IMG/VR virus record: IMGVR_UViG_3300033066_000592
Span: 1-64,000 of that record
DNA from: a virus
Taxonomy: Duplodnaviria; Caudoviricetes
Length of the DNA: 64,000 bases
Reading direction: 5' to 3' (one strand)
The position numbers and the translations under genes were made by a program. A model generated the notes under the pieces. It had not been told where the DNA came from, did no database searches, and saw nothing but the letters and a program-made list of their open reading frames with translations. This document shows, one piece after another, positions 3,041-50,484 of the stretch; within the stretch, counting starts at the first letter, position 1, and every line of letters begins with the position of its first letter.

Positions 3041-3651
3041 GCACAGTGGCTTTGACAAAAGCCGTATCCACCGAAGACTGGTGGACCGCTGAACGCGAAA
3101 CGTACTTCAAGCTGCGCATGCAAGGCAAAGCCGATACTGACATCGCGCAAGGGCTTGGCGTACATCGCAATACGCTACGTGAGTGGCGCAGCAGTCCAGC
3201 TTTCACACAGCGCATTGCTGAGCATGAAGCTGACGTGATTGCCGCTGTGCAGACGCGGCGTCAGCGCGGCACGATATCGCTTGCCGACGGCGCACAGCTC
3301 GCAGCCCAGAAAGCACAGGCGGAGCTGCTGAAAGATCCGGCGTCATATGACAAAGCCCGCCTGTCGATTGCACTCAGCGACAGTTTCGCTCGCATGCGAG
3401 AGCGTGAGCGGCAAGAGCTTGGCGTCGGTCAAGAGGCTGTCGTCAAAGTACAGCACAGCGGTGCTGTCGTACACGCAACGGCGCATCTCGACTTTCGGCG
3501 CTTCGTCACAGAGCGCGGCGTTGCAGACCTACAAGTCGAAGGCACGCCTGAGCAAGTCGTCGCTACACTGCTCATGGCGACAGCGAATCGCACCGACATC
3601 ATCGACGTCTTTGACGCTGAAGACGCGCCCGCCGACAAGGTGGCCAAATGA
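3037..3651 (+). CDS. terS: terminase small subunit (HTH)
   Basis: IAQGLGVHRNTLREW HTH; directly upstream of and overlapping terL; start moved from 2464 to ATG 3037. Confidence 0.7.
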   Translation: MSTVALTKAVSTEDWWTAERETYFKLRMQGKADTDIAQGLGVHRNTLREWRSSPAFTQRIAEHEADVIAAVQTRRQRGTISLADGAQLAAQKAQAELLKDPASYDKARLSIALSDSFARMRERERQELGVGQEAVVKVQHSGAVVHATAHLDFRRFVTERGVADLQVEGTPEQVVATLLMATANRTDIIDVFDAEDAPADKVAK

Positions 3652-5435
3652 ACATCGCCGATGTTCTCAAGGGTCTGCCGGCGGGCCTTTCCGTGCGTGA
3701 CGCTTTCGAGCTGATGTCGGAGCAAGATCCCGCTCTGTGGTGTGCCTACAAGCGCCGGCTTAACGGTGCACCGCTGACGTTCAACAACGAGCATCAGCTC
3801 ACAGCCGCATCACTCGCGGATCTGCGTGCCAAGAATCCAGAGAAGTACGACAAAGAGCTGTACGTCAGGCTGCTCAAGCATCGGCCGATGCTTATCGATC
3901 CGCTGCGTGATCAGCATCCTGAATTGATCATTGAGAAAGGCCGACAGGCTGGCGTCAGCGAAGTCGCTATCTCCAAGGCGATAGCGATGCTCGACAAGAA
4001 GCCGAGCAGCAAGCAGACACCGAAGCTCATCTACACCTTTCCGCGCAATCCGCAGCTGCTCGACTACAGCAACACGCGCATCGCGCCGATCTTCCGCGAG
4101 ACGCCACGCGCCGCCGCTCTGTTGACAGGCAGCAACGGCGTCATGAGCAAGAAGATCGGCCGCGGCTTTCTCATCTTGCGTAGCGCGTGGGAGTCCGGCC
4201 TCGGCGAAGGCGTCGATGCCGACGCTGTCTTTCTTGACGAGTTCGATCGCATGAAGCCTGGCGTGGATGTGGCCTTTCGCGAGTCACTGTCGTCGTCAGA
4301 GTGGAACATCTTCTGCATTCTCAGCACGCCGACGCTGCCGAAGAAGGGCATTGACGAGTTCTTTCAGAAGAGTGATCAGCGCGTCTGGCTCGTGCGCTGC
4401 TCGCGCTGTTCGCTTGAGCAAGAAGTCACGTACGCCGACAACGTCGTGCAAGTGCAAGAGCTGCCCGTCGGCAGCAAAGAGGTGCCTGAAGGCAGCTTCG
4501 CCTACGTGTGCAAGCTTAAGAAGTGCCAAGGTCCGCTTGACCGTCTGCACGGTCGCTACGTCGCTCGGTATCCTGAGCGCAAAGACGCGCGTGGTTATCA
4601 CATACCGCAGACGATCATGCCGTGGATCTCCGCGTCGGCGCTTCAGCGCAAGCGCGTGAAGTACAAGTTCTTTCAGCTGTTCTGCAACTACTCGCTTGGC
4701 ATCACGAGCAAAGGCGACAACGTCTTTCTGACTGACGAGGACTTCGAAGAGATCGTCGGTACGTCAGAGGCGTTTCCTTACGGCTATCCGATGATCTCTC
4801 GACGCACGCGCGATTGGAGCCGTGTCGTCGTTGGCATCGACTGGGGCCATATGAACTGGGTCGTCGTGATGGGCATCTCCGCGCATAACGACAGGCCGTA
4901 CATACTCGCAGTCGACTACTTCGAAGACGACGCAGCGCAGGAGCTGGCGTCGGTCTACGCGATCGAGAACTTCATCAAACCGTTCGAGCCTGACATGATT
5001 CTTGCCGACAGTGGCTACGGCAAAGACCGCAACGCCTATCTCAAACGCAAGTTCGCCACGGAAGGTGGCCGCGAGTTCTACGCTGTCTTCACAGTAGGCG
5101 GCGAAGGTCAGACGTCACGTAACGTCGCGCCTGTGTGGGCTGAAGGCAAAGTCACTGTCGACAAGACGATGGCCTACAAGCTGACGGCGCGTGCCATCAA
5201 AGAGAAGGAGTTTGGCATACCGTCTCTTGAGAACCGTTCGATCGCGCTGCTGCGTGATCACTTCAAGAACTTGGCGCTGCTGAGACAGCAAGCCAACGAA
5301 GACGACGAGAACAGCGAGATCGTCGAGCACATCGCAGCAAGCGGTGATGATCACCTGGCAAGCGCAACAGTCTTCGCGTGGCTCGGCATCGAGAAGCTGT
5401 CAGCCGGCGGTGATCTGCACTTCAGTTTCGACTAG
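3648..5435 (+). CDS. terL: terminase large subunit
   Basis: EKGRQAGVSE (Walker A variant), VFLDEFD (Walker B), STP coupling motif, GIDWG / ADSG / DDH nuclease motifs. Confidence 0.92.
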   Translation: MNIADVLKGLPAGLSVRDAFELMSEQDPALWCAYKRRLNGAPLTFNNEHQLTAASLADLRAKNPEKYDKELYVRLLKHRPMLIDPLRDQHPELIIEKGRQAGVSEVAISKAIAMLDKKPSSKQTPKLIYTFPRNPQLLDYSNTRIAPIFRETPRAAALLTGSNGVMSKKIGRGFLILRSAWESGLGEGVDADAVFLDEFDRMKPGVDVAFRESLSSSEWNIFCILSTPTLPKKGIDEFFQKSDQRVWLVRCSRCSLEQEVTYADNVVQVQELPVGSKEVPEGSFAYVCKLKKCQGPLDRLHGRYVARYPERKDARGYHIPQTIMPWISASALQRKRVKYKFFQLFCNYSLGITSKGDNVFLTDEDFEEIVGTSEAFPYGYPMISRRTRDWSRVVVGIDWGHMNWVVVMGISAHNDRPYILAVDYFEDDAAQELASVYAIENFIKPFEPDMILADSGYGKDRNAYLKRKFATEGGREFYAVFTVGGEGQTSRNVAPVWAEGKVTVDKTMAYKLTARAIKEKEFGIPSLENRSIALLRDHFKNLALLRQQANEDDENSEIVEHIAASGDDHLASATVFAWLGIEKLSAGGDLHFSFD

Positions 5436-18583: not shown

Positions 18584-18952
18584 CGGCCTATCGTAGCGCA
18601 GGTGTTTTTCAGTCTGTAGTTAAAACTGGTGTAGCGAAACGGTGATTACTGCGACCTTGCATTTACATGTGTCTTGAGCAAGTACACATGATACCTAAAA
18701 GATGCAGGTCGAGCATGTACAGCACAAATTCAGGATTTTATGTGCCAAGATTCATGACGCATTTTTCGCGTGTGCTTGTAACAAGTGTTGCATTTACGTA
18801 TCGACATTACTTGCTTGATGTACAGCGAGTTTGCCGAAGGTATTGGGGTTGTAAGCGGAGAATACCGGGTCCTATGGCTCGGTGCGCACGCCTGGGCCCG
18901 CGTAGGCTGGCCCGTCGCTGTTCACGTAGGCACTAACAGGTAAAGAGGCTAC
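18584..18952. promoter_or_regulatory. AT-rich divergent intergenic region
   Basis: Non-coding gap between divergent exonuclease and dTMP kinase genes; TTGCATTTAC occurs twice. Confidence 0.5.
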
Positions 18953-24672: not shown

Positions 24673-26529
24673 ATGAATTCGGCGCAGCAGCAGAGCTGGC
24701 AAGAGCGCAGCAACCTAGATCCAGGTACAGCACAGCTTGTTGACGAACTGGCGATGGCCCTCGTCAACAAGCTGCATCCAGCGCAGCTGCGCAACCCTGA
24801 GTCGCCGCCTAGTGAGTCGGTGCTGGTCGATCCACAAGGGGAACCTCTGTCGAAGTCGTTCGACGAGCCAAAAAGCTACTTCATCGATCCGAATGACATG
24901 CTGGGCGGGACGGGTATGAACTACGTCTACCCGCCCACGCAAGTCACGTACGAGACACTGCGCCTGCTGGCGGAGCGTGTGCCTGTTTGCTCGTGTGTGA
25001 TTCTGACGCGTGTGAATCAGGTCGCGTCGTTCTGCCGAGCGCCGCGCAACAAGTATGACATCGGCTTCAAGGTGCGGCCGATCGGCAAGTTCGATGATCG
25101 CGAGCTGACACCGGCAGAGAAATCCAAGTCGGAGGACATTGAGACGTTCCTGCGTTGGACTGGCAACGAGTACAACGAAGGTCGCGATGACTTCCAGACG
25201 TTCGTGAAAAAGCTCGTCAGAGACCGCTTGTACTATGACCAGGCGTGCTTTGAGAAAGTCGCATCACGTGACGGCGGCCTTGCCAGTTTTCATGCGATTC
25301 CGTCAGAGTCGATTCGCATCGCGATTCCGAAAAACGCGCAGGCGACACCTCCGACGGAGCACGATGTACGCCACGACGTCAAGTACGTGCAGATCATCAA
25401 CAGTCAGCCAATTCGCGACTACACGCATCGTGAGCTGGCTTTCCTGGTGGCTAACCCGCGCACGAATCTGCACGTCAACGGTTACGGATTCCCTGAGACA
25501 GAGATGATGCTGACCACGGCGATGGCGTTGCTGTGGGCAGAGGAGTGGAACCGCAACATCTTCAAGCAGGGCTCCACGCTCAAAGGCATCCTCAACGTCA
25601 AAGGCAGCTTCGCCAAGAACAAGTTCCTCGACCTGAAGCGAGAGTTTCAGACGAAGTTCACAGGCGTTCATAACGCGCACAAAAACGGCATCGTCAACGT
25701 CGACGAGCTTCAGTGGATTGCACTCCAGCTGAGCAATACGGAGATGGGCTTTCAGAGCTGGATCGAGTACCTGATCAAGCTCACTTGCGCGTTCTACCTC
25801 ATCGACCCCGCCGAGGTGAATTTCGACCTGCGCGGTAGCTCCCAGCAGCAGCCGATCTTCATGTCTGGCAACGAAGCCCAGCAGAAGATCAGCCGTGATC
25901 GCGGCTTGTCGCCGTTGCTTCAGTACGTCGAAGACGCCATCAACAAGCACATCGTATGGCGTATCGACCCACGCTATATGTTTGGGTTCGTCGGTCTCAA
26001 CGCCAAGACGCAAGAGCAGGCGATCGAGCTGGCCAGCAAAGAGGTCAGTTCCAAGCTCACGCTCAATGAAGTACGCGCGCTGGACGATCTGCCACCTGTG
26101 AAGGGCGGCGACATCGTACTCAACGCGATCTACACAGGCCGCTTGGCTGCATTGGACCAGCAGCAGGCTGGCGGTGGCATGCCAGGAATGCCACCGGGCG
26201 CGGCACCAGGCATGCCTGGTCAACCTCAACCGCCACAGCCGGGTCAGCAGCAGCCTGGGAATCCTTACGACCAGCTACAGCCAGGCCCGCCGGCTGCCGA
26301 AGATAAGCAGGCCGGTGCAAACCTGAAAGCTGCGAGTCAAGGTAAAGATGAGTCGTCATCGAGTGGCGACTCATCTGTGCCTAAGAAGGTCCGGCGCGTG
26401 TTGATGCGCAACGATTGGGAAAACAGCTCTCTGTTCATGTCGCAGGACAAGCGCAGCGCAGCAGGCACAGACTTGGTGAAGTCTCTGTTTGGCCAGGATG
26501 CGACTGGCGATACGTACGACGAAGTCTAG
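24673..26529 (+). CDS. portal protein
   Basis: LVRDRLYYDQACFE, NPRTN..VNGYGFPE, F.QGS..KGIL, QWIAL..SN.EMGF, IDPAEVNF, TLNEVRA.DDLPP..GGD. Confidence 0.92.
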   Translation: MNSAQQQSWQERSNLDPGTAQLVDELAMALVNKLHPAQLRNPESPPSESVLVDPQGEPLSKSFDEPKSYFIDPNDMLGGTGMNYVYPPTQVTYETLRLLAERVPVCSCVILTRVNQVASFCRAPRNKYDIGFKVRPIGKFDDRELTPAEKSKSEDIETFLRWTGNEYNEGRDDFQTFVKKLVRDRLYYDQACFEKVASRDGGLASFHAIPSESIRIAIPKNAQATPPTEHDVRHDVKYVQIINSQPIRDYTHRELAFLVANPRTNLHVNGYGFPETEMMLTTAMALLWAEEWNRNIFKQGSTLKGILNVKGSFAKNKFLDLKREFQTKFTGVHNAHKNGIVNVDELQWIALQLSNTEMGFQSWIEYLIKLTCAFYLIDPAEVNFDLRGSSQQQPIFMSGNEAQQKISRDRGLSPLLQYVEDAINKHIVWRIDPRYMFGFVGLNAKTQEQAIELASKEVSSKLTLNEVRALDDLPPVKGGDIVLNAIYTGRLAALDQQQAGGGMPGMPPGAAPGMPGQPQPPQPGQQQPGNPYDQLQPGPPAAEDKQAGANLKAASQGKDESSSSGDSSVPKKVRRVLMRNDWENSSLFMSQDKRSAAGTDLVKSLFGQDATGDTYDEV

Positions 26530-26540
26530 GAGACACGACG

Positions 26541-29500
26541 ATGGTGATGGTAGCGATTAAGCCACCGAGGCGCGTACGCAGATGGCTAGAGCGACTTGAT
26601 GCGCCTGGCGCAGTGGATGCCGAGAGCTACCACGTCACGTTGTTGCACATCAAAGGCGCTGACCTGTCGAAAGCTGGCTTTGCCGCTCTGTGCGAAGCCG
26701 TCGCCACGACTTGTCGGACGCACAAGCACTTCGCAGCCAAGATCGGCGGCTTCGGTTATTTCCAGAACAGTCAGCCGAAGCCCTGTGTGTGGGCTTCTGT
26801 CGATTCTGTCGCTCTCACAGACGTGCGAAACAGCGTCCTTGCGCATCTCAAGGGCAGCGATGTCAAGGTCTCAGACGAGCACGGATTCACGCCGCACATG
26901 ACGCTCGGTTACACAGAGCATGCGCGCAAGTGGAAGCCTGATCATGTGAAGCGCATGCCCGAGTGGACTGCGAAATCTCTGTACGTCGTGAAAGACGACG
27001 TCTGGACCCGCATGCCTCTGACAGAACCCGTGGACGATCGTATGCGTCTTGTGCCGACGTTTGAGTCAGGCTACCGCGACCTTGAAAAGCTATGGACCTG
27101 GCACAAGTCGCTCGTCGTCGTGAATGAATCCCTAGAGAAAGGCCGCAAGAAGGGCGGACAAAACAAGACGCGCCGATACTTGCTGCGCATCGAGATGCCC
27201 GGTGGTTCACCGGGCAAGCCGAACTACCGCTACGTCTATCCAGATAAAGACGACGTCGTCAGCTTCGATCCAAAGACGGGCTTCAAACTCAAGCCAGGTC
27301 GCAGCATTGCCAAGATCGTCAACGAGAAGCTGTTCGGCGACTACGGCGTAGACTCGCGCACGGGCGATCCCTACGTGAAAGAGGGCCTGTTTTACGCATA
27401 CGAGCCACGTGTCAGCACGTCGTACATGAAGCGCGCGTACGGTGAGCCGATTGCCACGGAGACGCTGAACAAGGTTCGGTTCTTCAAGTACAAGAAGGTT
27501 CACGGCTACACGGACGTCGACCTGGGCCCTGGCGTGGCCGCGTCAGGCTACCGGCTGCCACAGAAGCTGACGCAGCTTCAGATGACCGCTGACGAAGCGG
27601 CGGCGGCTCCGGGAAATCTCGCCGCAGAAGGCGCCGTCATCCTCAAACCAGAGGAGTTTGAAGAGAAGCGACCGTCGCCGTCTCACGACGTGGCACCTGT
27701 CGGCGAGAAGTCGATCGTCGTCGTACCAGAACAGACTCCTCTGTCGAAGTTGAACCTGGCTGAGCCGCTTCCTGACGACGTGGACCCGCTTCAGTACGCG
27801 GTGTCAGCAATCGAAGGCACGCGGCCTGGCCCTGGCAAAGCCGTTGTACGCCCGTTCAAGCAGTGGATGATCGACAAGTTCGGCAGCGAGTCAGGCTTGG
27901 TACAAGAGCTTGGCAATCGGCCGGCTACGACGTTGGTGACGCTCGGGCGTTTCAAGCCGACGCAGAAGAAAGTCCTCGCACGGCTCGAAGAAGAGTGGCG
28001 CGGCGTGATTCGGGGCATCGCCAAGCGTGCTGTGTCGGCGTATCGCGTGAGCAACGCATATCTTGCGGCCAAGGCATCAGATCAGGCCGCTGGCGTGCCG
28101 TACGAGAGTCAGAGTTCAGCAGCGCGCGGCTATATGCGTGAAGTCTTCAAAGAGGCCACGCAGCACGGCAGTGAGCAGCTGCTGCGCCTCGCTCGCCAGT
28201 ATGAGCCCACGGTTCATCACGATGATCGTTTCGACAAGTGGCTGTACGGCGCACTAGAGACGCAGATCGCGCGACACACCAAGCAAGAAGTCGAGCAGAG
28301 CAGCGGTGGCGGTGGAACGATCGAGCCGATCGTCAGCGGCGACATCGAAGAGGCCGCACGACGTACAGCGCAGCAGGTTGACCTGCAGCCTGACGAAGCC
28401 TATGAGCTGAAAGAGGCTGGTCATGACCAGCTGTCAGGCGACGAACTGACGACGTTGTCGACTGTGACAGGCCCTGCGAAAGCGACACTGCTGCGCACGC
28501 TGCACTCGCCTGAGATGCCGCAAGCGTACAGACGAGTGCTGGCTGCGCGCCTGTGGCTCGATTCGCCTGAGTCAAGCGCCGCTGAGGAGCAGGCCATCGC
28601 CAAGCGGTCTGACAAAGGTGTGAAAGGGCCGCAGAGTTTCGAGCGCAACTACACAGGCAAGAACGGTATCGCGTCGCGCTACAAGACGTGGATAGACCCA
28701 AAGACAGGCAAGCTTGTAGACGTGTCGAAGCTGAATCAGAGCCGACAAGCCGCCCTGTTGTCGAGCTGGTACGAAGCGGCTAAAGCGCATGTATTTCGGC
28801 AGCTGAGCGTACCGATGGCCGAGGCTCGCGCCACGATGCCAGACGTGCATCCGAGCGGCCTCTATCAGAATCCGAAGCGTGTGCCGTTCACAGAGCAGCA
28901 GATCGCCGACAAGCTGCATTCAGTCGGCCATGGCACAGCTGAAGATGCCGCAGACTTGCTGGTGGACGCCGCGCTTGGTGGCGGTATGCGCGTGCTGACG
29001 CGCGAAGGCGCGATGGTCAAGCGTTGGCTGGAGCTAGAGACGAAGCTGGCGCGTGGCAATCGTCGACTGTTCTCAGAGCGCACGCAGCATCCGATTGCAC
29101 AGGAGTCGCTGTCTGGGCCCGTGCCCGCACGTCCCGCGAAAATCGTCGTCATGCCTGAGAAGCCTGTGCTGGATAAGCACGGCGAGTGGCAGTCGCTACC
29201 TGTACATCCGACGCAGCGCTCAGCGCATCCGGCGATCGACTTCTTCTCGTCGACACCGAACCAGCAGCTTGCGCAACGGCTGGGCATCAATCTGCGACAC
29301 ATCAGTGGTCCAGAGACGGCCAGTGGTGTCTACGCGCATCAGAACGTCAGCATGGGCACCGCCGCGGAGCACACGCTTGCTGCTGCCAAGCTGGCACACG
29401 CGAAGCTGCTCAAGATGCAAGCACTCAAGCCTGCGCGTCTGCACGAAAAGCTAAAGCGCGCTCAGGCCGACGCAGATGCTCTAGACAAGCTAGGGTTGAG

Positions 29501-30296
29501 CCGCACGTCAGCAGGCATGACGTGGAACGAAGCCGGTCAGATCGGCAAGTTCTACAATGCTGTGCGTGCGCTGCACGCAGCTACGAACACGATCAAGCAA
29601 AAGCAGGCGAAGGTCCGTCTCGCCAAGAAGGCGTATCGCAAAGAGGCTGGCAAGGTCAGCATCGCGGCCAAGAATCCGTTCGACCGAAAGAAGGACAAGC
29701 TCGCGCATTCGGTCATGCGACATATCCTCGCTGTGAAACCGACGAGTACGCAGGAACTTGACCAGGCTGTGATGAACTGGATCGACGAGACGCACGACGT
29801 CGAGAGCAAGTCTGCACGGCGGACGTTTTTCAATGCCGTGAAAGAGCATCTACGCAACGAGAAAGCCGTCAGCAGTGGTGGCGACTTGGCGAAGCATGAA
29901 GCCGAGCTGAAGAGTCACGCGCCGACTGCACAGGAAATAGCAGCGCACAAGGCCGCAGCTGATCACGCAGCGAAAGCTGGAGCTGCTCTTAGCGCCGTGA
30001 AAGTCGCAGGCAAACCGTTCGGTAAGGAAGTCGTGATGCGCTACATCAGCAGCAAGAATCCGGCTGAGGTTCATGACGAGGTGCGTGCTTCGCTTCAGAA
30101 TCTTGCATCAAGCGTACATACCGACAAAGAGCTTGCCGAGTTCGAGCTGAACCGTCGCAAGACGGCCGGCAACACGCTCGTCAAGTCGATGGCTGAGGCT
30201 TCGTTCGAGAGCTTCGGTGCAGCGATCGATGCGTTTGATTTCGCGCTTACGATGACCGATTCTGCACGTATGGCTGCCGAAACGGTCGTGGTGTGA
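26541..30296 (+). CDS. polyvalent protein: N-terminal 2H phosphoesterase, central sigma70-like region, C-terminal shared helical module
   Basis: AGGAG RBS before ATG 26541; YHVTL and PHMTL HxT motifs. Confidence 0.75.
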   Translation: MVMVAIKPPRRVRRWLERLDAPGAVDAESYHVTLLHIKGADLSKAGFAALCEAVATTCRTHKHFAAKIGGFGYFQNSQPKPCVWASVDSVALTDVRNSVLAHLKGSDVKVSDEHGFTPHMTLGYTEHARKWKPDHVKRMPEWTAKSLYVVKDDVWTRMPLTEPVDDRMRLVPTFESGYRDLEKLWTWHKSLVVVNESLEKGRKKGGQNKTRRYLLRIEMPGGSPGKPNYRYVYPDKDDVVSFDPKTGFKLKPGRSIAKIVNEKLFGDYGVDSRTGDPYVKEGLFYAYEPRVSTSYMKRAYGEPIATETLNKVRFFKYKKVHGYTDVDLGPGVAASGYRLPQKLTQLQMTADEAAAAPGNLAAEGAVILKPEEFEEKRPSPSHDVAPVGEKSIVVVPEQTPLSKLNLAEPLPDDVDPLQYAVSAIEGTRPGPGKAVVRPFKQWMIDKFGSESGLVQELGNRPATTLVTLGRFKPTQKKVLARLEEEWRGVIRGIAKRAVSAYRVSNAYLAAKASDQAAGVPYESQSSAARGYMREVFKEATQHGSEQLLRLARQYEPTVHHDDRFDKWLYGALETQIARHTKQEVEQSSGGGGTIEPIVSGDIEEAARRTAQQVDLQPDEAYELKEAGHDQLSGDELTTLSTVTGPAKATLLRTLHSPEMPQAYRRVLAARLWLDSPESSAAEEQAIAKRSDKGVKGPQSFERNYTGKNGIASRYKTWIDPKTGKLVDVSKLNQSRQAALLSSWYEAAKAHVFRQLSVPMAEARATMPDVHPSGLYQNPKRVPFTEQQIADKLHSVGHGTAEDAADLLVDAALGGGMRVLTREGAMVKRWLELETKLARGNRRLFSERTQHPIAQESLSGPVPARPAKIVVMPEKPVLDKHGEWQSLPVHPTQRSAHPAIDFFSSTPNQQLAQRLGINLRHISGPETASGVYAHQNVSMGTAAEHTLAAAKLAHAKLLKMQALKPARLHEKLKRAQADADALDKLGLSRTSAGMTWNEAGQIGKFYNAVRALHAATNTIKQKQAKVRLAKKAYRKEAGKVSIAAKNPFDRKKDKLAHSVMRHILAVKPTSTQELDQAVMNWIDETHDVESKSARRTFFNAVKEHLRNEKAVSSGGDLAKHEAELKSHAPTAQEIAAHKAAADHAAKAGAALSAVKVAGKPFGKEVVMRYISSKNPAEVHDEVRASLQNLASSVHTDKELAEFELNRRKTAGNTLVKSMAEASFESFGAAIDAFDFALTMTDSARMAAETVVV

Positions 30297-30297
30297 C

Positions 30298-32484
30298 GTG
30301 CATCTGCATTACGAGGACATCAGAGCTGACCTTGCGTACCTGAGCCCGTTTCCTGTGGAAGCGGCTAGCGTGCGCAAGGTCGTACAGGGTTATGAAGGCG
30401 TGTTGTACAGCGCCGGCCGTGCCTATATGTACACGCTGAACGGTCGGGGACTTCGCTTCGTAGGCGTGCCTGATGAAGCCGCAGACGACGCTGCGCGAGC
30501 GCACGATCTGTCGATGGACGCAGAGCGCGCGTTGTCGCTGGCCGAGAATCGTCGTGTGTCAGCGGCTGAGGCCAGCGAAGCCGTACAGATGAACGGCGCT
30601 ACTGTCGGCCAGGTGCTGATCGTCAAGGCGAGTCCAGGCGCGCACCACGCAGGTTACATGCGGCGTGATCCACGCACAGGTAAGTTGGAGCAGGTGTCGC
30701 CGCTTGGTTACACGCCAGAGAAGCCACCGCCGCGCGAGACGAAGCATTATGCGGCAGTGAGCGTGAATGCGGATGTCGAGCTGGAGTCTGACGACGAGCT
30801 TGGGCATCAACTGCTCGCGCATCTCATCAAGCGACAGCCCAAGAATGAAAAGCAGCTTGCCGCCGCTGTCGAGAGCTTCGTTGACGACAGTTTCGACATC
30901 GAGAACGCAGCTGCTCGTAAGAAGTGGCTGAAAACGATTCACAGCTATCTGACGGAAAACGGAATCACAGAGACGGCAGACGCCAATGACGAGGAAGCCG
31001 AAGGTGATGCCGAGCAGGATGCGTGGAGCAGTCGCAAGGCACAGGCAAAGCTTCAGATTCCTGTCACGTTCAAACCACGTGGCACCAAGCTGCTTGTGAA
31101 TGGGCAGCCCGTCTCTGTATCGGCCGATGTCGAGCAGGCGTGCTATGCGTACGCCAAGCGCTTCCTCGTCAAGGGCGGTACCGTCAAAGACCAGGCGCGC
31201 TTCGTCAAGAACTTCGAGTCGAGCTTGCGCAAGCTCGGCGTGCCCAAAGGTGACATTGGCTATAAGCACTTCGTTGTTCAAGCGAAGAAAGACCTCGCGG
31301 CGCCTGTCAGCAAGAAGGGTCCGAAGGACGAGAGCCCGCAAGCACGGCCTGACCTGTACGTGAAGCAAGACGGCGTTATGACGCGCGTGATTGCTGCAAC
31401 GCTTCCGACAGGTGGCTTCTACACGGGCAAGAAGGGCTACGGCACGTGGGTTCCTCCTGTACGTGAAGAAGACCTTGTGCTCAACGTGTCGCCAGGCGGA
31501 GCGCCAGCAGGTTGGCGTGGTAAGGTCATCAACGATCCGTCGAAAGATTTCTACCTGACATGGGAACACCCTGTCGCCAAGAAGCGCGGTTACGTCTACA
31601 TGAGCCGCAAGCAGGCGGATCTGGAGAAGTTTTTTGCCTGCACAGTGCTCAGCAAGAAGTTGCAAGACATCTCCGACGATGTGTTCAAGGACATCACGAG
31701 CAAGAGCACACCGTCAGCCACCAAGGCCGCGGCGTTGTGCGTGATGCTCATAGATCAGCATCACTTCCGTGTGGGCAACGAGACGTTCGCCAAGCAAGGC
31801 ACGTACGGTGTTGCGTCGTTTCGTGCCAAGCACGTGAAGATCGACGGCACGAAGGTTACGTTTGAGTTCGTTGCCAAGAAGCAAGAGCCGTGGAAGCGCG
31901 AAGTCGACTTCGCTGGTATGCCGTCAGCTCTCGCATTCCTGAAGACGTGCATGAAGGGCAAGAAGCCTGACGATCGGCTCTGGTCTGGCACTGACTGGTC
32001 TGCATCGTCGAAAGACGTGAACGAATATCTGGCGCCGTACTCAGCTGATGGCGTCAAGATCACGGCGAAGTCATTGCGCACGTACCATGCGAATCGGCAC
32101 ATGACGGGCTACCTGCGCAAGCTGGAAGAGGCGCAGACGGCCTACAAGCTCACCGATGTCGAGGTGCGCAAGCTGTACAAGGGCGTCAAGCTCAAAGGCA
32201 AAGACGCCGCGCTGCTCACGCGCAAAGCCAAGAAAGACGGACCGAAGCTGTCGGACTTCTTGGGCTTCGTGCCGTATGTCGGCGCCAAGGGCAAGGGCAG
32301 CGCCATGACGGGCGTGCTGCCGTCTGTGGCAGCAAAGATGGGCCACACGACGGGTGCCTGCCGGAATAACTATATCGATCCTGTCGTGGTGACACGGTTC
32401 GCTGTACTGCACGGCTGGGACGATCGAACACCAAAAGAGCGCAAGTCTCGTGAAGACCTGCCAGGGTATGAGCCCGATGCGTGA
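30298..32484 (+). CDS. DNA topoisomerase IB with long N-terminal extension
   Basis: FRVGNE..TYG, FEFVAKK, KSLRTY, KMGHT..ACRNNYIDP: the R-K-R-H-Y catalytic set. Confidence 0.88.
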   Translation: MHLHYEDIRADLAYLSPFPVEAASVRKVVQGYEGVLYSAGRAYMYTLNGRGLRFVGVPDEAADDAARAHDLSMDAERALSLAENRRVSAAEASEAVQMNGATVGQVLIVKASPGAHHAGYMRRDPRTGKLEQVSPLGYTPEKPPPRETKHYAAVSVNADVELESDDELGHQLLAHLIKRQPKNEKQLAAAVESFVDDSFDIENAAARKKWLKTIHSYLTENGITETADANDEEAEGDAEQDAWSSRKAQAKLQIPVTFKPRGTKLLVNGQPVSVSADVEQACYAYAKRFLVKGGTVKDQARFVKNFESSLRKLGVPKGDIGYKHFVVQAKKDLAAPVSKKGPKDESPQARPDLYVKQDGVMTRVIAATLPTGGFYTGKKGYGTWVPPVREEDLVLNVSPGGAPAGWRGKVINDPSKDFYLTWEHPVAKKRGYVYMSRKQADLEKFFACTVLSKKLQDISDDVFKDITSKSTPSATKAAALCVMLIDQHHFRVGNETFAKQGTYGVASFRAKHVKIDGTKVTFEFVAKKQEPWKREVDFAGMPSALAFLKTCMKGKKPDDRLWSGTDWSASSKDVNEYLAPYSADGVKITAKSLRTYHANRHMTGYLRKLEEAQTAYKLTDVEVRKLYKGVKLKGKDAALLTRKAKKDGPKLSDFLGFVPYVGAKGKGSAMTGVLPSVAAKMGHTTGACRNNYIDPVVVTRFAVLHGWDDRTPKERKSREDLPGYEPDA

Positions 32485-33811
32485 CGACTACACGAAATAT
32501 TTTCTGAGCCGCGTAGACGGCAGTGAAGACGCCTACAACGGCTACCTACAAGCGCCTGGTGACGACTTGGTGTTTGTGGCCGAGCGGCACGGCCGAGAAG
32601 ACGTCGTGACGAAATCGACGGTGCTGATGAAGGCCGAGAAGTATAAGGTGTTGGGAGTAGCATTTGGCTATGCGAAGCACATTTCCTATCAGCGTCTAGA
32701 TCCCCGCACTGGAAAGATGGTGCAGGTGAAAGGCGGTCGTGATACGCCGATAGGAAAGACGTCGCTGACACCGCACCACTTCGACATTACGGTGCAGAAG
32801 AAGCATGGTCTCAGTGACGATGAGACGGCGATGGCCGTACTTCGCTACGTCGCGCAGAAGAAAGTCCGCACAGAAGGCGAGCTGCACGAGGCTGTGCAGG
32901 AGTTCGTGGAGAAAAATTACGACTCCGAAAGCTCAGAAGCTCGGGGCAAATGGGTGAGCACGATTCTGAAAGCCCTGTTTCACCACAAGGCTGTACAGGT
33001 CACGCATCCAGGTGACGACATTGCGTACGGCAATATGCGCGTGCGTGATATGGCCATGGTGAGCCAGTGGGTACAGGGCTCCAACAACACCGTCGGTTCT
33101 GTCAGGCTCCGTGTCGGTGTTGCGAAACTGTTTAAGCAGGATATCGAGCGCGTCACGGAACGCGCTCGAAAGAATTCATCTGACAAGAAACGTTTTGAGC
33201 GCATGTTGGCTGACGCCAAGGCCGACAAAGACCTCGTCGCTTCTGTGGAGCGCGTAGCGGCGCTGTCACAGTCTGCTTACAAGGGTCAAAAGACGGTCGT
33301 GCTGCATCGCGCTATCAGCAAGGAACAAACAGCTGAGATTCGGAAACAGCTAAAGCTGAAGCCCGGTGTGACTGCACGTGGGAAGGTCATTACGATACCC
33401 GTCGATAACGTGACGTCGTTGTCAGAGAATGCTGCTGCGGCACATTCGGCGTTCGCCGGTTTTGACGGCATGACTGTACGGGTCGAGGTACCCGTGTCTG
33501 CCATCGTGATGTCGTATCGGGCAATGCCGTCCACGATGTCGCTAAGCGGCGACACTGAGTGGGAGGTAGTTGTCGCTACGCCAGGTAAGCTTCATGCTAC
33601 GATCGTAGCCGACAGATATCTTGGTGAGAATTCGTTACCGGAAGCTCCTATTAAATACCAAAAATCTTCTTTACGGGCTTTGGCTGAAAAAGAACGTGCA
33701 CGTTTTGAATCTAGGTACACAAAATTAAATCCCAAGCAGCACAGTATCTACAGCACCTATTGGAAAAAAACGCCTGCGGAATTCCTGCTCGAAGAAGATG
33801 TGTTTTCATGA
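32477..33811 (+). CDS. putative ADP-ribosyltransferase (R-S-E class) with shared N-terminal module
   Basis: VLHRA...VTSLSEN...VEVPVSAIV...EWEVVV. Confidence 0.6.
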   Translation: MRDDYTKYFLSRVDGSEDAYNGYLQAPGDDLVFVAERHGREDVVTKSTVLMKAEKYKVLGVAFGYAKHISYQRLDPRTGKMVQVKGGRDTPIGKTSLTPHHFDITVQKKHGLSDDETAMAVLRYVAQKKVRTEGELHEAVQEFVEKNYDSESSEARGKWVSTILKALFHHKAVQVTHPGDDIAYGNMRVRDMAMVSQWVQGSNNTVGSVRLRVGVAKLFKQDIERVTERARKNSSDKKRFERMLADAKADKDLVASVERVAALSQSAYKGQKTVVLHRAISKEQTAEIRKQLKLKPGVTARGKVITIPVDNVTSLSENAAAAHSAFAGFDGMTVRVEVPVSAIVMSYRAMPSTMSLSGDTEWEVVVATPGKLHATIVADRYLGENSLPEAPIKYQKSSLRALAEKERARFESRYTKLNPKQHSIYSTYWKKTPAEFLLEEDVFS

Positions 33812-37800: not shown

Positions 37801-39282
37801 AAGGTGCTGCTCGTAGGTACGAAGGCTGGCGGCGCTGGTCTGAACCTACAAAAAGCGGCGAATCGCTCGATGTTTTTGAGCGAGCCGTGGGACCCCGCGA
37901 GCAAGCGCCAAGCACTTGGCCGCGTGTGGCGCACAGGGCAGAAGTCGCACTGTACCGCTGACAACTACCGCATGATCGGTACCTACGATATGCGTGTGGA
38001 AAATAAGCTCGGCACCAAGCAGCTCATGACGACTGCTTTGCTGGGCGACGCTGACGTGGACTTCAATCAGAGTGCTGACGAGCACATCCAGCGTCTGACG
38101 GGCCGCGAACTTGGCGGCGAGAACATGAGCACCGAGCAGATGGCGGCTCTGTTGGCAAACGCTGGTAACTTCAGTATCGACGCCGATTCGCTGGGCGATG
38201 ACTTCGATGACGTGAGCGAAGACTCGTTTGACGATTCTGAGTTCATGGACAAGAAGCTCAAGCGGTCAGAAGAAAAGAAGCTGGAGGCTGACCCAGCAAA
38301 GCGCGCCGCGCTTCAAAAGAAGGCGCCACAACTGGCCGAAGTCGTCGACATGAGTGCCGAGTCTGACAAGTGGCACGCAGAGGCGATGCGTCAGACGGCC
38401 AAACAGCGCTATGACATCGCGATGATGCAAGCGAAGGTCGCCGAGACGGCCGGTGACAAGCAGATGGCCGACAAGGCACAGAAAGCAGCGGAGCGCGTTA
38501 AGGCAGCCTTTCCAGAAGCTTTCGGCGCTGTCGAGCGTAAAAAGCAGGAAGTCGACACGGACGACCTGTTCGCCAAAAAGCAGCAAGCGAAAACCGAGTC
38601 GGTACAGCGTCAAGCGCAGACGGTAAACGAAGGCAAAGAGCCCACGCGCGGGGACATGAGCCTTGCTGCGGCCAACTATGTTGCGCGCAACAAAGATCAC
38701 TTCAGTACCAAGCAGCGCAAGGCCGCGCAAGAAGTGATCACACAGGCAGAGCGCCTGGGCATCGACAGTGATACGTGGCGACCTAACGAGGAGCGGCTTG
38801 ACCGGCTCGCCAAGCACAAGGGCCAGATGCCCAAGATGGGCGACGTGCTCAAAGACCTCAAGCAGCGGTGGGCGGAACACAACTGGCTTGAAGCAAACGG
38901 TCACACGAAAGAAGCAAAGGCCGCACGCAAAGAGATCGATCAGCAGCATGGCTGGCTGCCTGAAGAGTTCGATGACGTGGCGTCTCAGCAGCAGCAAGAG
39001 ATGGCGCACAAAGGCATTGGCGTGAAGCCGAAGAAGCCGGAAGGCTTTGTGGCACCTACGGCGTTTCCGGCCAAAAACCCCTTCAAGAAAAAAGAAGACC
39101 CTCTCGCTTACGACGCGATGGAACACCTGCTTGCGAAGCAGCCCAAGACGTATGACGATACGCAGGCAGCGCTACTCCAGCACGTCAAGAAGACGATGAA
39201 GGGCACACCCGAAGCGCTTAACAAGTTCGCCACGCAGGTGCACAAGTACCTGATCAAGAACAAGGGTTTGACCTATGGATGA
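34900..39282 (+). CDS. SNF2-family (SF2) helicase/translocase, 1460 aa
   Basis: GLLADDAGMGKT, FIDEVH, MTATP.PNNPMDLY, AGGAGLNLQKA, PWDP...QALGRVWRTGQ. Confidence 0.92.
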   Translation: MLTGKTVSGGKLRVRVQPLPYAHLQQVADGLTHVFTTRMRELEAKLNARLAHTVERLQPAVLIVSDEHLSKAASPKQNASGQARAKAGEGQTRTYQRPPGGVKTPGQRGGKFYYTATGKLRYGEKPQPQEREATHEEVRQHFQHFRPTPFMSNSREHKDLLQAIRDLKTGGFDETDDTLLGWWEKHQKQFNKLWGLSDEDVAGDLSAIQLQDNDGRELSYEQAVHEFLMDQDWGDASEADVEEALRDVMTRYQNALRDPAVMKKAEAIAAQVDQQVYGWFTNMEATADHYDGLAASLSGDPDVAVANMTAALGAMELVFKPGKGQKAGDLTGAIAPNSGWLDEGGYLSTTGADRVASLNVGQLLAIYAGARLNEAFDPDTATYDTLHGGKGPQSKLAETVRKLIAQKLKLDPAGAVMTTVLDGVHATIERLATTFSNANTGRDTSGLARKLLDMPSDKLTKGGEGVQKLIEKAQNFEQLKADALKAREDESWSVPDTMLEGNVGGKKINPITGKPFDLFKHQKQAINWAKTVKRGLLADDAGMGKTAEVIGICESLKQDGKIKRGILFLPPSLLAQWPKEIMSFAPEMAKGGRILNLSGLSLEARKAALQSDMAKNAEYILMSTGSLAYGKSEDGEEDGGMDEGLVQALADLDGAVFIDEVHQGGFKTGSQGVAGTKDYRPGSVKHEITKRIIGERDYAFGMTATPCPNNPMDLYHLINLFHPGCVGDQAEWEEKLSGVKWDGHSWRIPHPENVQEINRRIKPFALHRLITDKVVEEDMGKQLPQLTSNAIDLEPATAKCPVTGWSQLDYLRPGGVCDALAQKRLEIINAKREKAGKPVLEGVDAETTVRMIHMGLERQAAISPELIDPRYRGPAAKLDRVVADVIAHFSGGAGQEGKPIVLFDSFPRKSFPVVKRKLAEAGIDVSGIGEIMGGKSAQERAFMQDMLNGYERVNPATKEKEFVPGKLKVLLVGTKAGGAGLNLQKAANRSMFLSEPWDPASKRQALGRVWRTGQKSHCTADNYRMIGTYDMRVENKLGTKQLMTTALLGDADVDFNQSADEHIQRLTGRELGGENMSTEQMAALLANAGNFSIDADSLGDDFDDVSEDSFDDSEFMDKKLKRSEEKKLEADPAKRAALQKKAPQLAEVVDMSAESDKWHAEAMRQTAKQRYDIAMMQAKVAETAGDKQMADKAQKAAERVKAAFPEAFGAVERKKQEVDTDDLFAKKQQAKTESVQRQAQTVNEGKEPTRGDMSLAAANYVARNKDHFSTKQRKAAQEVITQAERLGIDSDTWRPNEERLDRLAKHKGQMPKMGDVLKDLKQRWAEHNWLEANGHTKEAKAARKEIDQQHGWLPEEFDDVASQQQQEMAHKGIGVKPKKPEGFVAPTAFPAKNPFKKKEDPLAYDAMEHLLAKQPKTYDDTQAALLQHVKKTMKGTPEALNKFATQVHKYLIKNKGLTYG

Positions 39283-39673
39283 TCACGCGATTTTCGAACT
39301 CGTGCGCGCTGACGGTAAGAAGCGCGCACGAGTGACGACACCGAAAGACACGCTGCGCGTGCACGACGCCGACGAGCTTCGTGCACAGCTTGATCACTAC
39401 AGCAAGGCCAATGGTGTGACGTTCCTACGTCACGTGGTCGTTGACTCGCAGCAGGCACGTCTTCAGTACGTCAAGTACCTGCGACCGGCTTTGCGCTACT
39501 ACTGCAAAAAGTTTGGCGTACAAGTGCCCGACTGGCTCAAGGCCGATACAGCTTTCTCAACGCTGTCCGCACACGAGCAGCACACGCTGTTCGGTGAAAC
39601 GGTCAAGTTTCCTGTGCGTGAATTCGCAGAGGTGAACACGTCTGGTTCGAAGCAAGGAAAGATCGCGTCATGA
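39275..39673 (+). CDS. hypothetical protein
   Basis: Overlapping start and stop with both neighbours. Confidence 0.65.
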   Translation: MDDHAIFELVRADGKKRARVTTPKDTLRVHDADELRAQLDHYSKANGVTFLRHVVVDSQQARLQYVKYLRPALRYYCKKFGVQVPDWLKADTAFSTLSAHEQHTLFGETVKFPVREFAEVNTSGSKQGKIAS

Positions 39674-42438: not shown

Positions 42439-43404
42439 ATGGGTAAGAAAGCAGTTTCAGACGAGACGGTTACGGCAGCGCTGGCACAGCTGCGATCCAA
42501 GATCGCCAAGAGCCAAGGCGGCGATGCCCTGGCGAGCGCCGATACGGAGGGTGGGCTGTCCTCCGAAGGTGAAGACATGAGCAAGCTGGGCAAAGGCAAG
42601 GCCGGCAAGGTCGCCAAAGGCAAGAAGCCACCGATGAAGAAGATGTATTCGGAGTCGGATAAAGATCCCGACGAGTCGTCTGACGATGACGAATCGAGTG
42701 ACGACGAGTCTTCGCCCGCAGCGCCGCCTGTCAAGAAGGGCATGCCGGAGTCTGACGAGTCGTCCGACGAAGAGTCATCCGACGACGAGGAGTCTTCGCC
42801 TGCGCCGACCGTCAACAAGAGCAAGAAGCGCGTTCGCAAGTCGCTCGTCGATCGCGTCGAGGACGACACGGATTTGCGCAAGGGCTTCGCCGCCAATGCG
42901 TTCCTGAAGTCGATGACGGAACGCCTGTCGGACACCGTCGAAGACTATCGCGACGAGCTGCGCAAGTCGTACGGCGAGCTGTCCGAGCAGGTCGATGGTC
43001 TGGGCGAGAACTTCGCGGGCATGCACGAGAACATCAGCGCTCTGGCGGCCGACAACGCGCGACTGAAGAAGGGCATGGATGTGCTTGCGGAGGGCCTGAC
43101 TGAGGCGCTGTCGCTGCTCGAACGCATTGCCAAGGCGCCTACGAGCAGCGGTCCACGCAGCGTTCTGCGCAAAGGGGATGTCGTGGAGCCGTCGCGGCTC
43201 AATGACGGCGGTGATGATTCGCTGAACCCCGCGCAGCACAGCAATCTCGTCAAGTCGTACCTGCTAGAGAAGATCGAGAAGGGCGAAGTGGCCAGCACGG
43301 TCATGGCTGCCTGGGAGCAGATGGGCAACGTCGAGTATTTGCCCTCGAATGTCATGAACAAGATGCTGGCCGATTTCCAGGCCGGCTGGAAGCCCAAGGC
43401 GTAA
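42439..43404 (+). CDS. capsid scaffold protein
   Basis: Acidic D/E/S tracts and coiled coil; directly upstream of the major capsid gene; GGAG RBS before ATG 42439. Confidence 0.75.
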   Translation: MGKKAVSDETVTAALAQLRSKIAKSQGGDALASADTEGGLSSEGEDMSKLGKGKAGKVAKGKKPPMKKMYSESDKDPDESSDDDESSDDESSPAAPPVKKGMPESDESSDEESSDDEESSPAPTVNKSKKRVRKSLVDRVEDDTDLRKGFAANAFLKSMTERLSDTVEDYRDELRKSYGELSEQVDGLGENFAGMHENISALAADNARLKKGMDVLAEGLTEALSLLERIAKAPTSSGPRSVLRKGDVVEPSRLNDGGDDSLNPAQHSNLVKSYLLEKIEKGEVASTVMAAWEQMGNVEYLPSNVMNKMLADFQAGWKPKA

Positions 43405-49641: not shown

Positions 49642-50484
49642 ATGCCTATCGTCGTCGGTATGGGACCTTTGTTGGGTGGTCCTAAATACACAGGCACACC
49701 GTCACCCAAAGGCACGTGGGCGAAAGTGTGGGACGATTTCGACGTTCCATTTGCACGTGACGGTTTTGCACGACTTATCAGTGCGCACGGAACAGACGTA
49801 CTGTGGGAGAAGTCTGTTCCATGTCCAAAGCTGTCACCTGTCGATAAACGCCATCATCACGACTTCGCGTGTCGTGTCTGCGACGGTTTTGGTCGCATTT
49901 ACATCGATCCCCAAGCGGCCCCGATGCTGATACAGGCGATTGATTTGCACCAACAGTACAGCGCGCAGTCTCGCGTGGATTCAGGTACAGCACGCGTCAC
50001 AGCGATGCCTGAATTTCGGCTTAGTGAAGGTGATCGACTGACACTTGTGACAGCTATCGACCGTTTTGAAGAAAAGGTTCTGCGCTCACGCACGTCTGAC
50101 ACCGACGATGCGAAGTACCCGATCGTTGCGACGATCGTGTACGACAGTTCGCCTGGTGCATTCAACGTGTCTTGGGTAGACCGTACCGGTGTGCTCAAGA
50201 CGTACGTGCAAGGCGTAGATTTCCAGATCACAGTGTCTGGACGAATCAGATGGCTGAATCTGGCAGGACAACCTGATGCAGATTCGTTCTACAGCGTGGC
50301 CTACCACTACCATCCGCGCTACATCGTCATTCCAGACTTGCTGCATCAAGTTCGGATGCAGCCAGTGAAAGGCCGCGCCTGGGAATTTCCAGTACAGGTC
50401 ATGGCTAAGTACGAATATCTCATGCGAGACGAGAGCCGCGATGCGCCTGTCAGTCCGGTGCCAGATCCCGTCATCCGTAAGTGA
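49642..50484 (+). CDS. neck / head-closure protein
   Basis: WEKSVPCP...CRVCDGFG.IY pattern of SPO1-type neck proteins. Confidence 0.7.
   Translation: MPIVVGMGPLLGGPKYTGTPSPKGTWAKVWDDFDVPFARDGFARLISAHGTDVLWEKSVPCPKLSPVDKRHHHDFACRVCDGFGRIYIDPQAAPMLIQAIDLHQQYSAQSRVDSGTARVTAMPEFRLSEGDRLTLVTAIDRFEEKVLRSRTSDTDDAKYPIVATIVYDSSPGAFNVSWVDRTGVLKTYVQGVDFQITVSGRIRWLNLAGQPDADSFYSVAYHYHPRYIVIPDLLHQVRMQPVKGRAWEFPVQVMAKYEYLMRDESRDAPVSPVPDPVIRK

Follow-up and report, generated by a model that had tools for sequence, protein, structure and literature searches.

In the first 64 kb of the 74,264-base IMG/VR virus record IMGVR_UViG_3300033066_000592 (Duplodnaviria; Caudoviricetes; completeness rated 63%), which form the 64,000-nucleotide window analyzed here, we found that the gene immediately after the portal gene encodes a 1251-residue protein with a sigma-like module in its middle. 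Residues 455-760 of this protein very probably have the fold of the sigma70 superfamily and are homologous to it, in a very divergent form. A sigma2-like domain, a flexible linker and a sigma4-like domain follow one another in canonical order, which is the two-domain layout of extracytoplasmic function (ECF)-type sigma factors. An initial annotation, made from the sequence alone, had noticed by eye a weak likeness to sigma regions 2 and 4 and had proposed a packaged sigma-like factor or sigma mimic that redirects or blocks host RNA polymerase at entry. This reading is partly supported: fold and homology are borne out, while the half that concerns packaging and RNA polymerase goes beyond what the present data show. 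To our best explanation as a whole, in which a sigma module is packaged, trimmed, ejected and docks on polymerase, we assign a probability of about 0.5.

The gene, which encodes a multi-domain protein of the polyvalent type, occupies 26541-30296 on the plus strand, as seen in its open reading frame and translation and in an identical 1251-residue gene call on the record (P0002), and our residue numbering starts at the ATG at 26541 of that gene call. All of the strings on which the initial annotation was based fall inside this one reading frame (frame 3, plus strand): WRGVIRGIAKR begins at residue 486, the stretch from EATQHG to IARH covers residues 538-579, LLRTLHSPEMPQAYRRVLAARLWLD covers residues 649-673, and SFE...IA covers residues 700-711. 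The span originally marked, 27990-28690, corresponds to residues 484-717 and therefore clips the module at both ends, since the full module runs from residue 455 to 760 (27903-28820). Within it, the sigma2-like domain with equivalents of regions 2.1-2.4 takes up residues 455-594 (27903-28322, plus strand), a linker with a conserved L-S-P-E-E motif takes up residues 595-634 (28323-28442, plus strand), and the sigma4-like domain takes up residues 635-760 (28443-28820, plus strand). The two domains are supported by VIA-align, HMMER and hhalign matches to sigma factors and, for sigma2, by the predicted local distance difference test (pLDDT); the linker is supported by alignment blocks and by a low pLDDT of 46-59.

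Sequence and structural evidence for a sigma-like module

A word-indexed search retrieved only four relatives of the protein. When 1.84 billion representatives were searched exhaustively with a profile, 1090 matches came up at E<=0.001, 32 of them at E<=1e-30. About 45 of the matches listed cover the sigma-module region, and the many weaker ones match the 2H domain (described below) only. The family thus defined has about 45 representatives at 50% identity, all of them from uncultured sources.

When a profile of 5 members was run against PDB sequences, three SigA chains were matched over regions 2.1-2.3 at E 0.16-0.5. The 45-member profile matched Bacillus subtilis SigA at E 0.006, with stretches on both region 2 and region 4, and likewise matched FliA and RpoS. 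In the second stretch, which falls on SigA residues 266-352, L-P-E-x-Y-R-R-V...R-L-W-L-D-D of the family aligns with L-T-D-R-E-E-N-V-L-R-L-R-F-G-L-D-D of SigA. The Pfam model Sigma70_r2 finds 3 of the 45 family members at E<=0.01, and one of the family, P0071, exceeds the gathering score of that model (26.5 versus 24 bits). Sub-threshold Sigma70_r2 matches occur at the homologous position in P0033 (21.8 bits), P0035 (18.2), P0043 (16.0) and P0037 (13.9).

We also compared the alignment of the region with an alignment of six Escherichia coli K-12 sigma factors using hhalign. The score was 51.1 (P 1.2e-6, probability 90.8%), and the match was collinear from region 2.2 through to region 4.1. Each domain taken alone also found the correct part of the sigma factors, with a P value of 1.4e-4 for sigma2 and 2.4e-4 for sigma4. 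As controls, the reversed alignment scored 12.9, 30 column shuffles scored at most 23, 30 block shuffles scored at most 29.2, and four other parts of the same protein scored at most 22.6. The resemblance of the module to sigma factors exceeds chance.

Two AlphaFold models were made. The first covered residues 440-860, used 5 sequences and had a pLDDT of 62; sigma factors dominated its Foldseek list and sigma2 domains headed its VIA-align list. The second covered residues 455-770, used 45 sequences and had a mean pLDDT of 84.3, with values above 93 over the first 130 residues, 83-98 over residues 190-300 of the model, and low values in the linker between. In this predicted model, both the sigma2 and the sigma4 folds of the sigma70 superfamily are present. 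A Foldseek search of the PDB with the second model returned sigma factors in 46 of the top 50 rows. In the viral model library, the best rows were phage sigma factors with probabilities of 0.96-0.98, and the closest structural neighbors there were ECF-like sigmas of phages. The feature neighbors of the module in the protein atlas include a viral cluster with PF04542.

VIA-align, run against 48,161 representatives, gave SigB as the top match (Z 9.3), covering both domains. For sigma2 the matches included ShbA (Z 8.1, root-mean-square deviation (rmsd) 2.6 over 95 residues), region 2 of sigmaE (Z 7.1), region 2 of RpoS (Z 7.0), sigma70 (1sig, Z 6.6), SigI6 and T4 gp55 (7d7d chain F, Z 6.4), the last of which has a sigma2-type fold with 103 residues aligned to model residues 4-142. 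T4 gp55 is not known to contain a sigma4, and it relies on gp33 and the sliding clamp; unlike it, the present module has both sigma2 and sigma4. The first model ranked the sigma2 matches in the same way. For sigma4 the matches included SigL (Z 7.0), sigmaH (Z 6.6), region 4 of sigmaE on -35 DNA (2h27_D, Z 6.1, 69 of 69 residues), region 4 of SigR (5fgm, rmsd 2.2, 65 of 65 residues) and SigF (8jzt_A, rmsd 1.6, 57 of 57 residues). The sigma4 match spans 120 residues of the model, and therefore this domain carries about 50 extra residues.

The likeness to region 2 that had been seen by eye is accordingly supported by the profiles, by hhalign, by the Pfam threshold passed by P0071 and by fold searches with the two models. 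For region 4, it was the 45-member profile against SigA, hhalign and the sigma4 matches of VIA-align that upheld the initial annotation. Its own refuting condition, the absence of any profile or structural match to sigma r2/r4, did not come true.

Anatomy of the module compared with sigma factors

Residues were counted in 44 family members using the register given by HMMER and hhalign. The position aligned to D403 of sigma70 is D or E in 40 of the 44, and the position of Q406 is Q in 28, that of G408 is G or A in 39, and that of L412 is L in 37. Further along, Y is found at the position of F419 (41/44), R at that of K426 (42/44), and F at that of F427 (43/44). The core-binding signature of region 2.2 is therefore present, with the family consensus D-L-x-Q-x-G-x-x-x-L-x-x-x-A-x-x-Y, and beyond its Y the family keeps R-F-D, so that the hallmark of the beginning of region 2.3 is retained as well. 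The 1251-residue protein itself reads E-A-T-Q-H-G here, so that Q and G are retained and D is replaced by E. Beyond the signature, the position of Y430 is often aromatic, and the position of Q437 is N in 18 of the 44 members.

The sigma2-like domain also has features of its own. Ahead of the first long helix stand a very conserved element, R-P-x-T-T-L-x-T-L-G, and an E-W pair, and about 30 inserted residues separate this helix from the 2.2-like helix. In the sigma4-like domain, the 4.1-like helices read A-K-x-x-L ... P-E-x-Y-R-R-V ... R-L-W-L-D and are followed by a helix, a conserved R-x-W-T-G-x-x-x-I-A, a beta-hairpin with W-x-D-P-x-T-G, and a last long helix.

Genomic setting, and proposed head loading and processing

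The portal gene (24673-26529; PF04860 and phrog_12) ends 12 bases upstream of the gene for the 1251-residue protein. At the start of that protein is a 2H phosphoesterase domain with two H-x-T motifs (residues 9-129, 26565-26927, plus strand; PF13563 1.8e-14, PF02834 1.3e-10), and in this part the family profile also matched the 2H proteins 1vdx and 2fyh in the PDB. It is followed by a conserved N-core domain at residues 200-454 (27138-27902, plus strand), which is about 40% identical in the family members P0004 and P0006. The N-core domain has no Pfam match, and in the protein atlas residues 190-440 scored no higher than 0.83, which was uninformative. Identity to P0004 and P0006 is 41% in sigma2 and 32-43% in sigma4, falling to about 25% for the 2H domain and for the C-terminal third. 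Another family member, P0003, is 92% identical in the searched region and has an additional ADP-ribosyltransferase (ART)-like insertion (PF07357). In one further member of the sigma-module family, a topoisomerase IB domain is fused in the same polypeptide.

A 1116-residue protein (L006:6246-9596 and L008:4414-7764) with a 2H domain in its middle (PF13563, 5.3e-11) comes from a viral contig in which the gene order is terminase, portal, MuF. It bears a weak likeness over 90 residues to the sigma4.1-like stretch (pairwise E 1e-6). We excluded it as a family homologue, because what it shares is the 2H domain and this one weak stretch only.

Downstream of the gene are, in order, a topoisomerase-IB protein of 728 residues (30298-32484; PF01028 1.4e-27, catalytic core at residues 437-615), a 453-residue protein with no assigned family, an SNF2 helicase of 1460 residues, and then a protease/scaffold-like gene and the gene for the major capsid protein; the terminase lies at 3648-5435. 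The core of the topoisomerase, which stands here among head genes, is of the eukaryotic or poxvirus type and lies behind an extension of about 400 residues. In the protease/scaffold-like gene, two copies of a 50-base repeat at 42670-42803 encode runs rich in Asp, Glu and Ser.

Using clade alignments, we retrieved three related viral contigs, G001 (118.7 kb, 100% complete), G002 (88 kb) and G003 (117.4 kb, with direct terminal repeats, 100% complete). A search for related loci with the alignment of the region found none. In all three contigs the gene order is kept: ParB, a small conserved gene, portal, sigma-module gene, variable cargo genes, SNF2. Together with the phage studied here, the sigma-module gene thus directly follows the portal gene in four out of four genomes. 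At loci L034 and L035 the 2H domain is located in the next gene, which indicates that domains are shuffled among the cargo genes. The capsid protein is about 33% identical to the capsids of SPO1-like Bacillus phages, and on the basis of this low identity we consider the group to be without a close cultured relative.

The only Sigma70_r2 signal in G003 (17.4 bits) is inside the sigma-module gene, and the only other sigma-type signal in this genome is a weak r4_2 match (16.8 bits) in a 255-residue open reading frame elsewhere. In the two complete genomes, G001 and G003, no sigma-family signal outside the sigma-module gene passes threshold. Neither genome has a match to the multisubunit polymerase model PF00562, for which the control was valid. 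The T7-type polymerase model PF00940 also found nothing in either genome, a weaker negative since its control gave no signal.

At both ends of the G001 record we noted five tandem copies of the 15-base unit C-C-A-T-T-A-C-G-C-A-G-T-A-T-T (L043:12-86, and L048 at G001:118603-118677). This points to terminal repeats, even though the IMG/VR classification of the record is linear with no end repeats.

The 1251-residue protein has the marks of a polyvalent protein: it is large and multi-domain, it carries effector enzyme domains, it is encoded beside the portal, and its domains are shuffled among relatives, in which 2H, ART or topoisomerase IB domains occur at variable positions. A helical module of about 70-100 residues, located at residues 1038-1143 (29652-29969, plus strand), recurs in the three neighboring proteins, so that four consecutive proteins carry it: the 1251-residue protein, the topoisomerase IB protein, the 453-residue protein and the C-terminus of the SNF2 helicase. 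In a six-frame search of the phage's own genome, the other copies were found at 30754-31005 (E 1e-6), 32807-33067 (E 1.7e-4) and 39055-39372 (E 1.9e-7), and the consensus is D-D-E-L-A-H ... L-L-A-K-K-P-K-T ... F-V-D-K-T ... E-A-R-x-K-F ... H-K-Y-L. The four carriers are otherwise unrelated to each other, and the helical module may serve them all for loading or for binding a partner.

Between the 2H domain and the conserved core, the junction (27111-27143, residues 191-201) reads V-V-V-N-E-S-L-E-K-G, and its last four residues, L-E-K-G (residues 198-201, 27132-27143, plus strand), are a candidate site for the head protease, placed by the position of L-x-K-[AGS] in homologs. In P0003, the junction V-V-V-N-x-x-L-x-K-[AG] is duplicated and flanks the ART insertion on both sides. 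In homologs without the 2H domain, L-x-K-[AGS] closes a short leader and lies 10-20 residues from the N-terminus, at the same position of the alignment. The 1251-residue protein itself ends in V-V-V. The pattern [ILVMF]-x-K-[AGS] is enriched in the proteins of the head module (56 observed, versus 31.9 +/- 5.4 in shuffles), with one instance at residue 38 of the capsid protein and many in the scaffold region. The junction motifs and the shared helical module fit cargo proteins that are cut by a prohead protease, and prove nothing in this respect.

Possible roles and relation to known systems

In the explanation that we favor, the protein would be loaded into the prohead with its neighbors (the topoisomerase IB protein, the 453-residue protein and the SNF2 helicase), trimmed at L-x-K-[AGS] junctions between the K and the residue that follows it, and released from the capsid alongside the DNA. 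In the cell, the sigma module would then dock on the host core RNA polymerase, its 2.2-like helix resting against the beta-prime clamp helices and its sigma4 against the beta flap. The host enzyme would thus be brought to the incoming genome, and the module would act either as a specificity factor or by tethering the attached enzymes. We infer packaging and polymerase contact from the position of the gene, the polyvalent architecture and the conserved junction motifs. On this basis we lean slightly towards head loading and ejection of the protein, and we consider the chances that the module docks on the host core polymerase to be even. That it is a genuine promoter-specificity factor for early phage genes seems doubtful.

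A number of observations weigh against this explanation. The Pfam models Sigma70_r2, r4 and r4_2 have no match in the 1251-residue protein even at E 10, and the region-4 models match none of the 45 family members. Every Foldseek E value is above 0.01; the PDB rows are all above 0.1 and have a large rmsd, the latter because the two domains are posed differently in the model. VIA-align itself regards Z scores in the range seen here, 6-9, as middling when the proteins are helical. The 44 members do not retain the melting dyad W433/W434. ECF sigmas are not known to have the tryptophan dyad either, so its loss does not decide membership of the sigma family. About 50 residues (a helix and a beta-hairpin) break up the helix-turn-helix in sigma4, and the last long helix there has a conserved W-Y pair and few conserved basic residues; because of these two features the promoter reading is doubtful. 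None of the motifs that are most conserved in the module (R-P-x-T-T-L-x-T-L-G, E-W, W-x-D-P-x-T-G and W-Y) is a sigma hallmark. The putative cuts, at residues 200 and 1215, would leave the sigma module within a fragment of about 1000 residues. A tblastn search of 50,697 phage records with the 1251-residue protein and two distant family members found no match, and thus no cultured relative.

Also to be counted here is that no recurrent promoter-like motif was found among the repeats of the window, the 8-mers of gaps between genes, or the 11-mers of G000, G001 and G003. Direct repeats in the window form families at chance level only. In putative intergenic gaps the 8-mer enrichment was 13, with shuffles not exceeding 10, and its leading words were rich in GC. 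The exact 11-mers found in G000, G001 and G003 were only the terminal tandem repeats and coding Asp-rich repeats; the latter, similar to those in the protease/scaffold-like gene, dominate the repeated words of G001 and G003. Our crude gene calling was poor for the relatives of lower GC content, so this null result should not be taken as evidence of absence. Taken together, the module is sigma-like in fold and in its likely core-binding surface, and it is atypical exactly where a sigma factor reads DNA.

These same features lend themselves to another explanation, in which the module is derived from a sigma factor and makes no contact with RNA polymerase, having been exapted as a DNA- or protein-binding scaffold, for example to hold the genome end or to organize cargo in the capsid. 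Such a role would suit a module whose strongest family-specific motifs are outside the classical sigma signatures, whose sigma4 has a large insertion and a last helix without conserved basic residues, and which remains within a very large polypeptide. It sits poorly with the exposed polar D, Q and G of D-L-x-Q-x-G, which are kept across 44 diverse members, since maintenance of the fold alone would hardly explain their retention, and we regard exaptation as rather unlikely. A chance convergence of helical bundles, with no relationship to sigma factors, we judge to be very improbable. It could draw on the fact that no single search with the 1251-residue protein itself reaches conventional significance. 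A single-sequence Pfam search for a sigma domain, with the region and with the whole protein, gave only a sub-threshold Creb_binding match, phmmer with the whole protein had no match among PDB sequences, and in all six frames of the phage record, Sigma70_r2, r4 and r4_2 were without a match at E 10. Helical proteins also give middling Z scores to many folds. In opposition to this, the two sigma domains are each matched by a separate domain, and in the right order, mutually independent sequence and structure methods agree with clean controls, and one family member (P0071) exceeds the curated cut-off of Pfam. The weight of the structural case, too, comes from its consistency, from the order of the two domains and from its agreement with the sequence evidence.

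The module might also be the middle or late sigma factor of the phage, made after infection with the head genes, unpackaged and directing the host polymerase to late promoters like T4 gp55 or SPO1 gp34, with its fusion being incidental. A phage of about 118 kb that relies on the host polymerase usually needs a sigma factor or an equivalent, and the complete relatives have neither a polymerase nor a threshold-passing sigma signal outside the sigma-module gene. The capsid is, in addition, distantly SPO1-like, and the SPO1-like group uses phage sigmas. However, known free phage sigmas are stand-alone proteins of 150-300 residues, while here every relative examined has the gene at the same place, with the portal on one side and other cargo-type genes on the other, the module is fused to 2H, ART or topoisomerase IB domains, and the protein has its helical module and junction motifs in common with its neighbors. 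We therefore think it quite unlikely that a late sigma explains the gene. To return to the packaged, polymerase-docking module, its most far-reaching form would be a lineage of about 118-kb contractile-tailed phages that have neither a polymerase nor a free-standing sigma gene and whose only sigma module sits in packaged, protease-trimmed cargo, capturing the host core polymerase at entry and pointing it at phage DNA before phage expression. In this full form we consider it unlikely.

Packaged polymerases are known in N4, phiKZ and crAss-like phages. The N4 virion RNA polymerase and the T4 ADP-ribosyltransferase Alt are transcription-directed proteins that are delivered with the DNA (PMC5512222). 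They are a whole polymerase and a polymerase-modifying enzyme, respectively, and their packaging has been shown experimentally, in contrast to the docking subunit proposed here, for which packaging is deduced. Polyvalent proteins of phages and conjugative elements, in which 2H, ART and SNF2 domains are fused to or encoded beside MuF and portal genes, have been proposed to be packaged and injected (Iyer, Burroughs, Anand, de Souza and Aravind 2017; PMC5512222). The present protein resembles them as a giant multi-domain protein by the portal/MuF position, with 2H, ART and SNF2-type neighbors and domain shuffling. It differs in its sigma-family module, which is absent from the domains they list; the word 'sigma' does not appear in that paper.

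The free-standing, ECF-like sigma factor of phiEco32, gp36, and the identical SU10 CDS32 are similar to the module in their layout of sigma2, linker and sigma4, and in belonging to phages that use the host core polymerase. They are proteins of about 220 residues, are expressed as middle genes, are recognized by Pfam, and act on a defined promoter motif (PMC4281155). In contrast, the present module is internal to a 1251-residue protein of the head module and is missed by Pfam. In the SU10 proteome, the ECF sigma was detected as one peptide, among the polymerase and other non-structural proteins (PMC4281155), and given that company a single peptide does not count as evidence of packaging. Jumbo-phage reviews cover free sigma factors and packaged polymerases, and no packaged sigma (PMC7824862, PMC13282480). 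Our full-text search of the literature turned up no account of a virion or ejection protein that contains a sigma module.

The known phage routes to control of host transcription are free sigmas made after infection, injected whole RNA polymerases and injected polymerase-modifying enzymes. If our explanation is true, a 'packaged sigma' strategy would stand beside packaged polymerases as a fourth and cheaper route, in which just the specificity or docking subunit is delivered, and it would explain how the program starts in large phages without a polymerase or a recognizable sigma gene. The Pfam sigma models recognize almost none of this family (one member passes for r2). Annotating the module adds a defined, cloneable piece of 300 residues.

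In the window we also noted exact copies of T-T-G-C-A-T-T-T-A-C-R-T at 18657-18668 and 18788-18799, 131 bases apart in an AT-rich intergenic region. A third match, with one mismatch, is at 49893-49904. Three matches compare with 0.22 expected, and none of 100 shuffles reached three. This sequence may be an operator or a promoter element.

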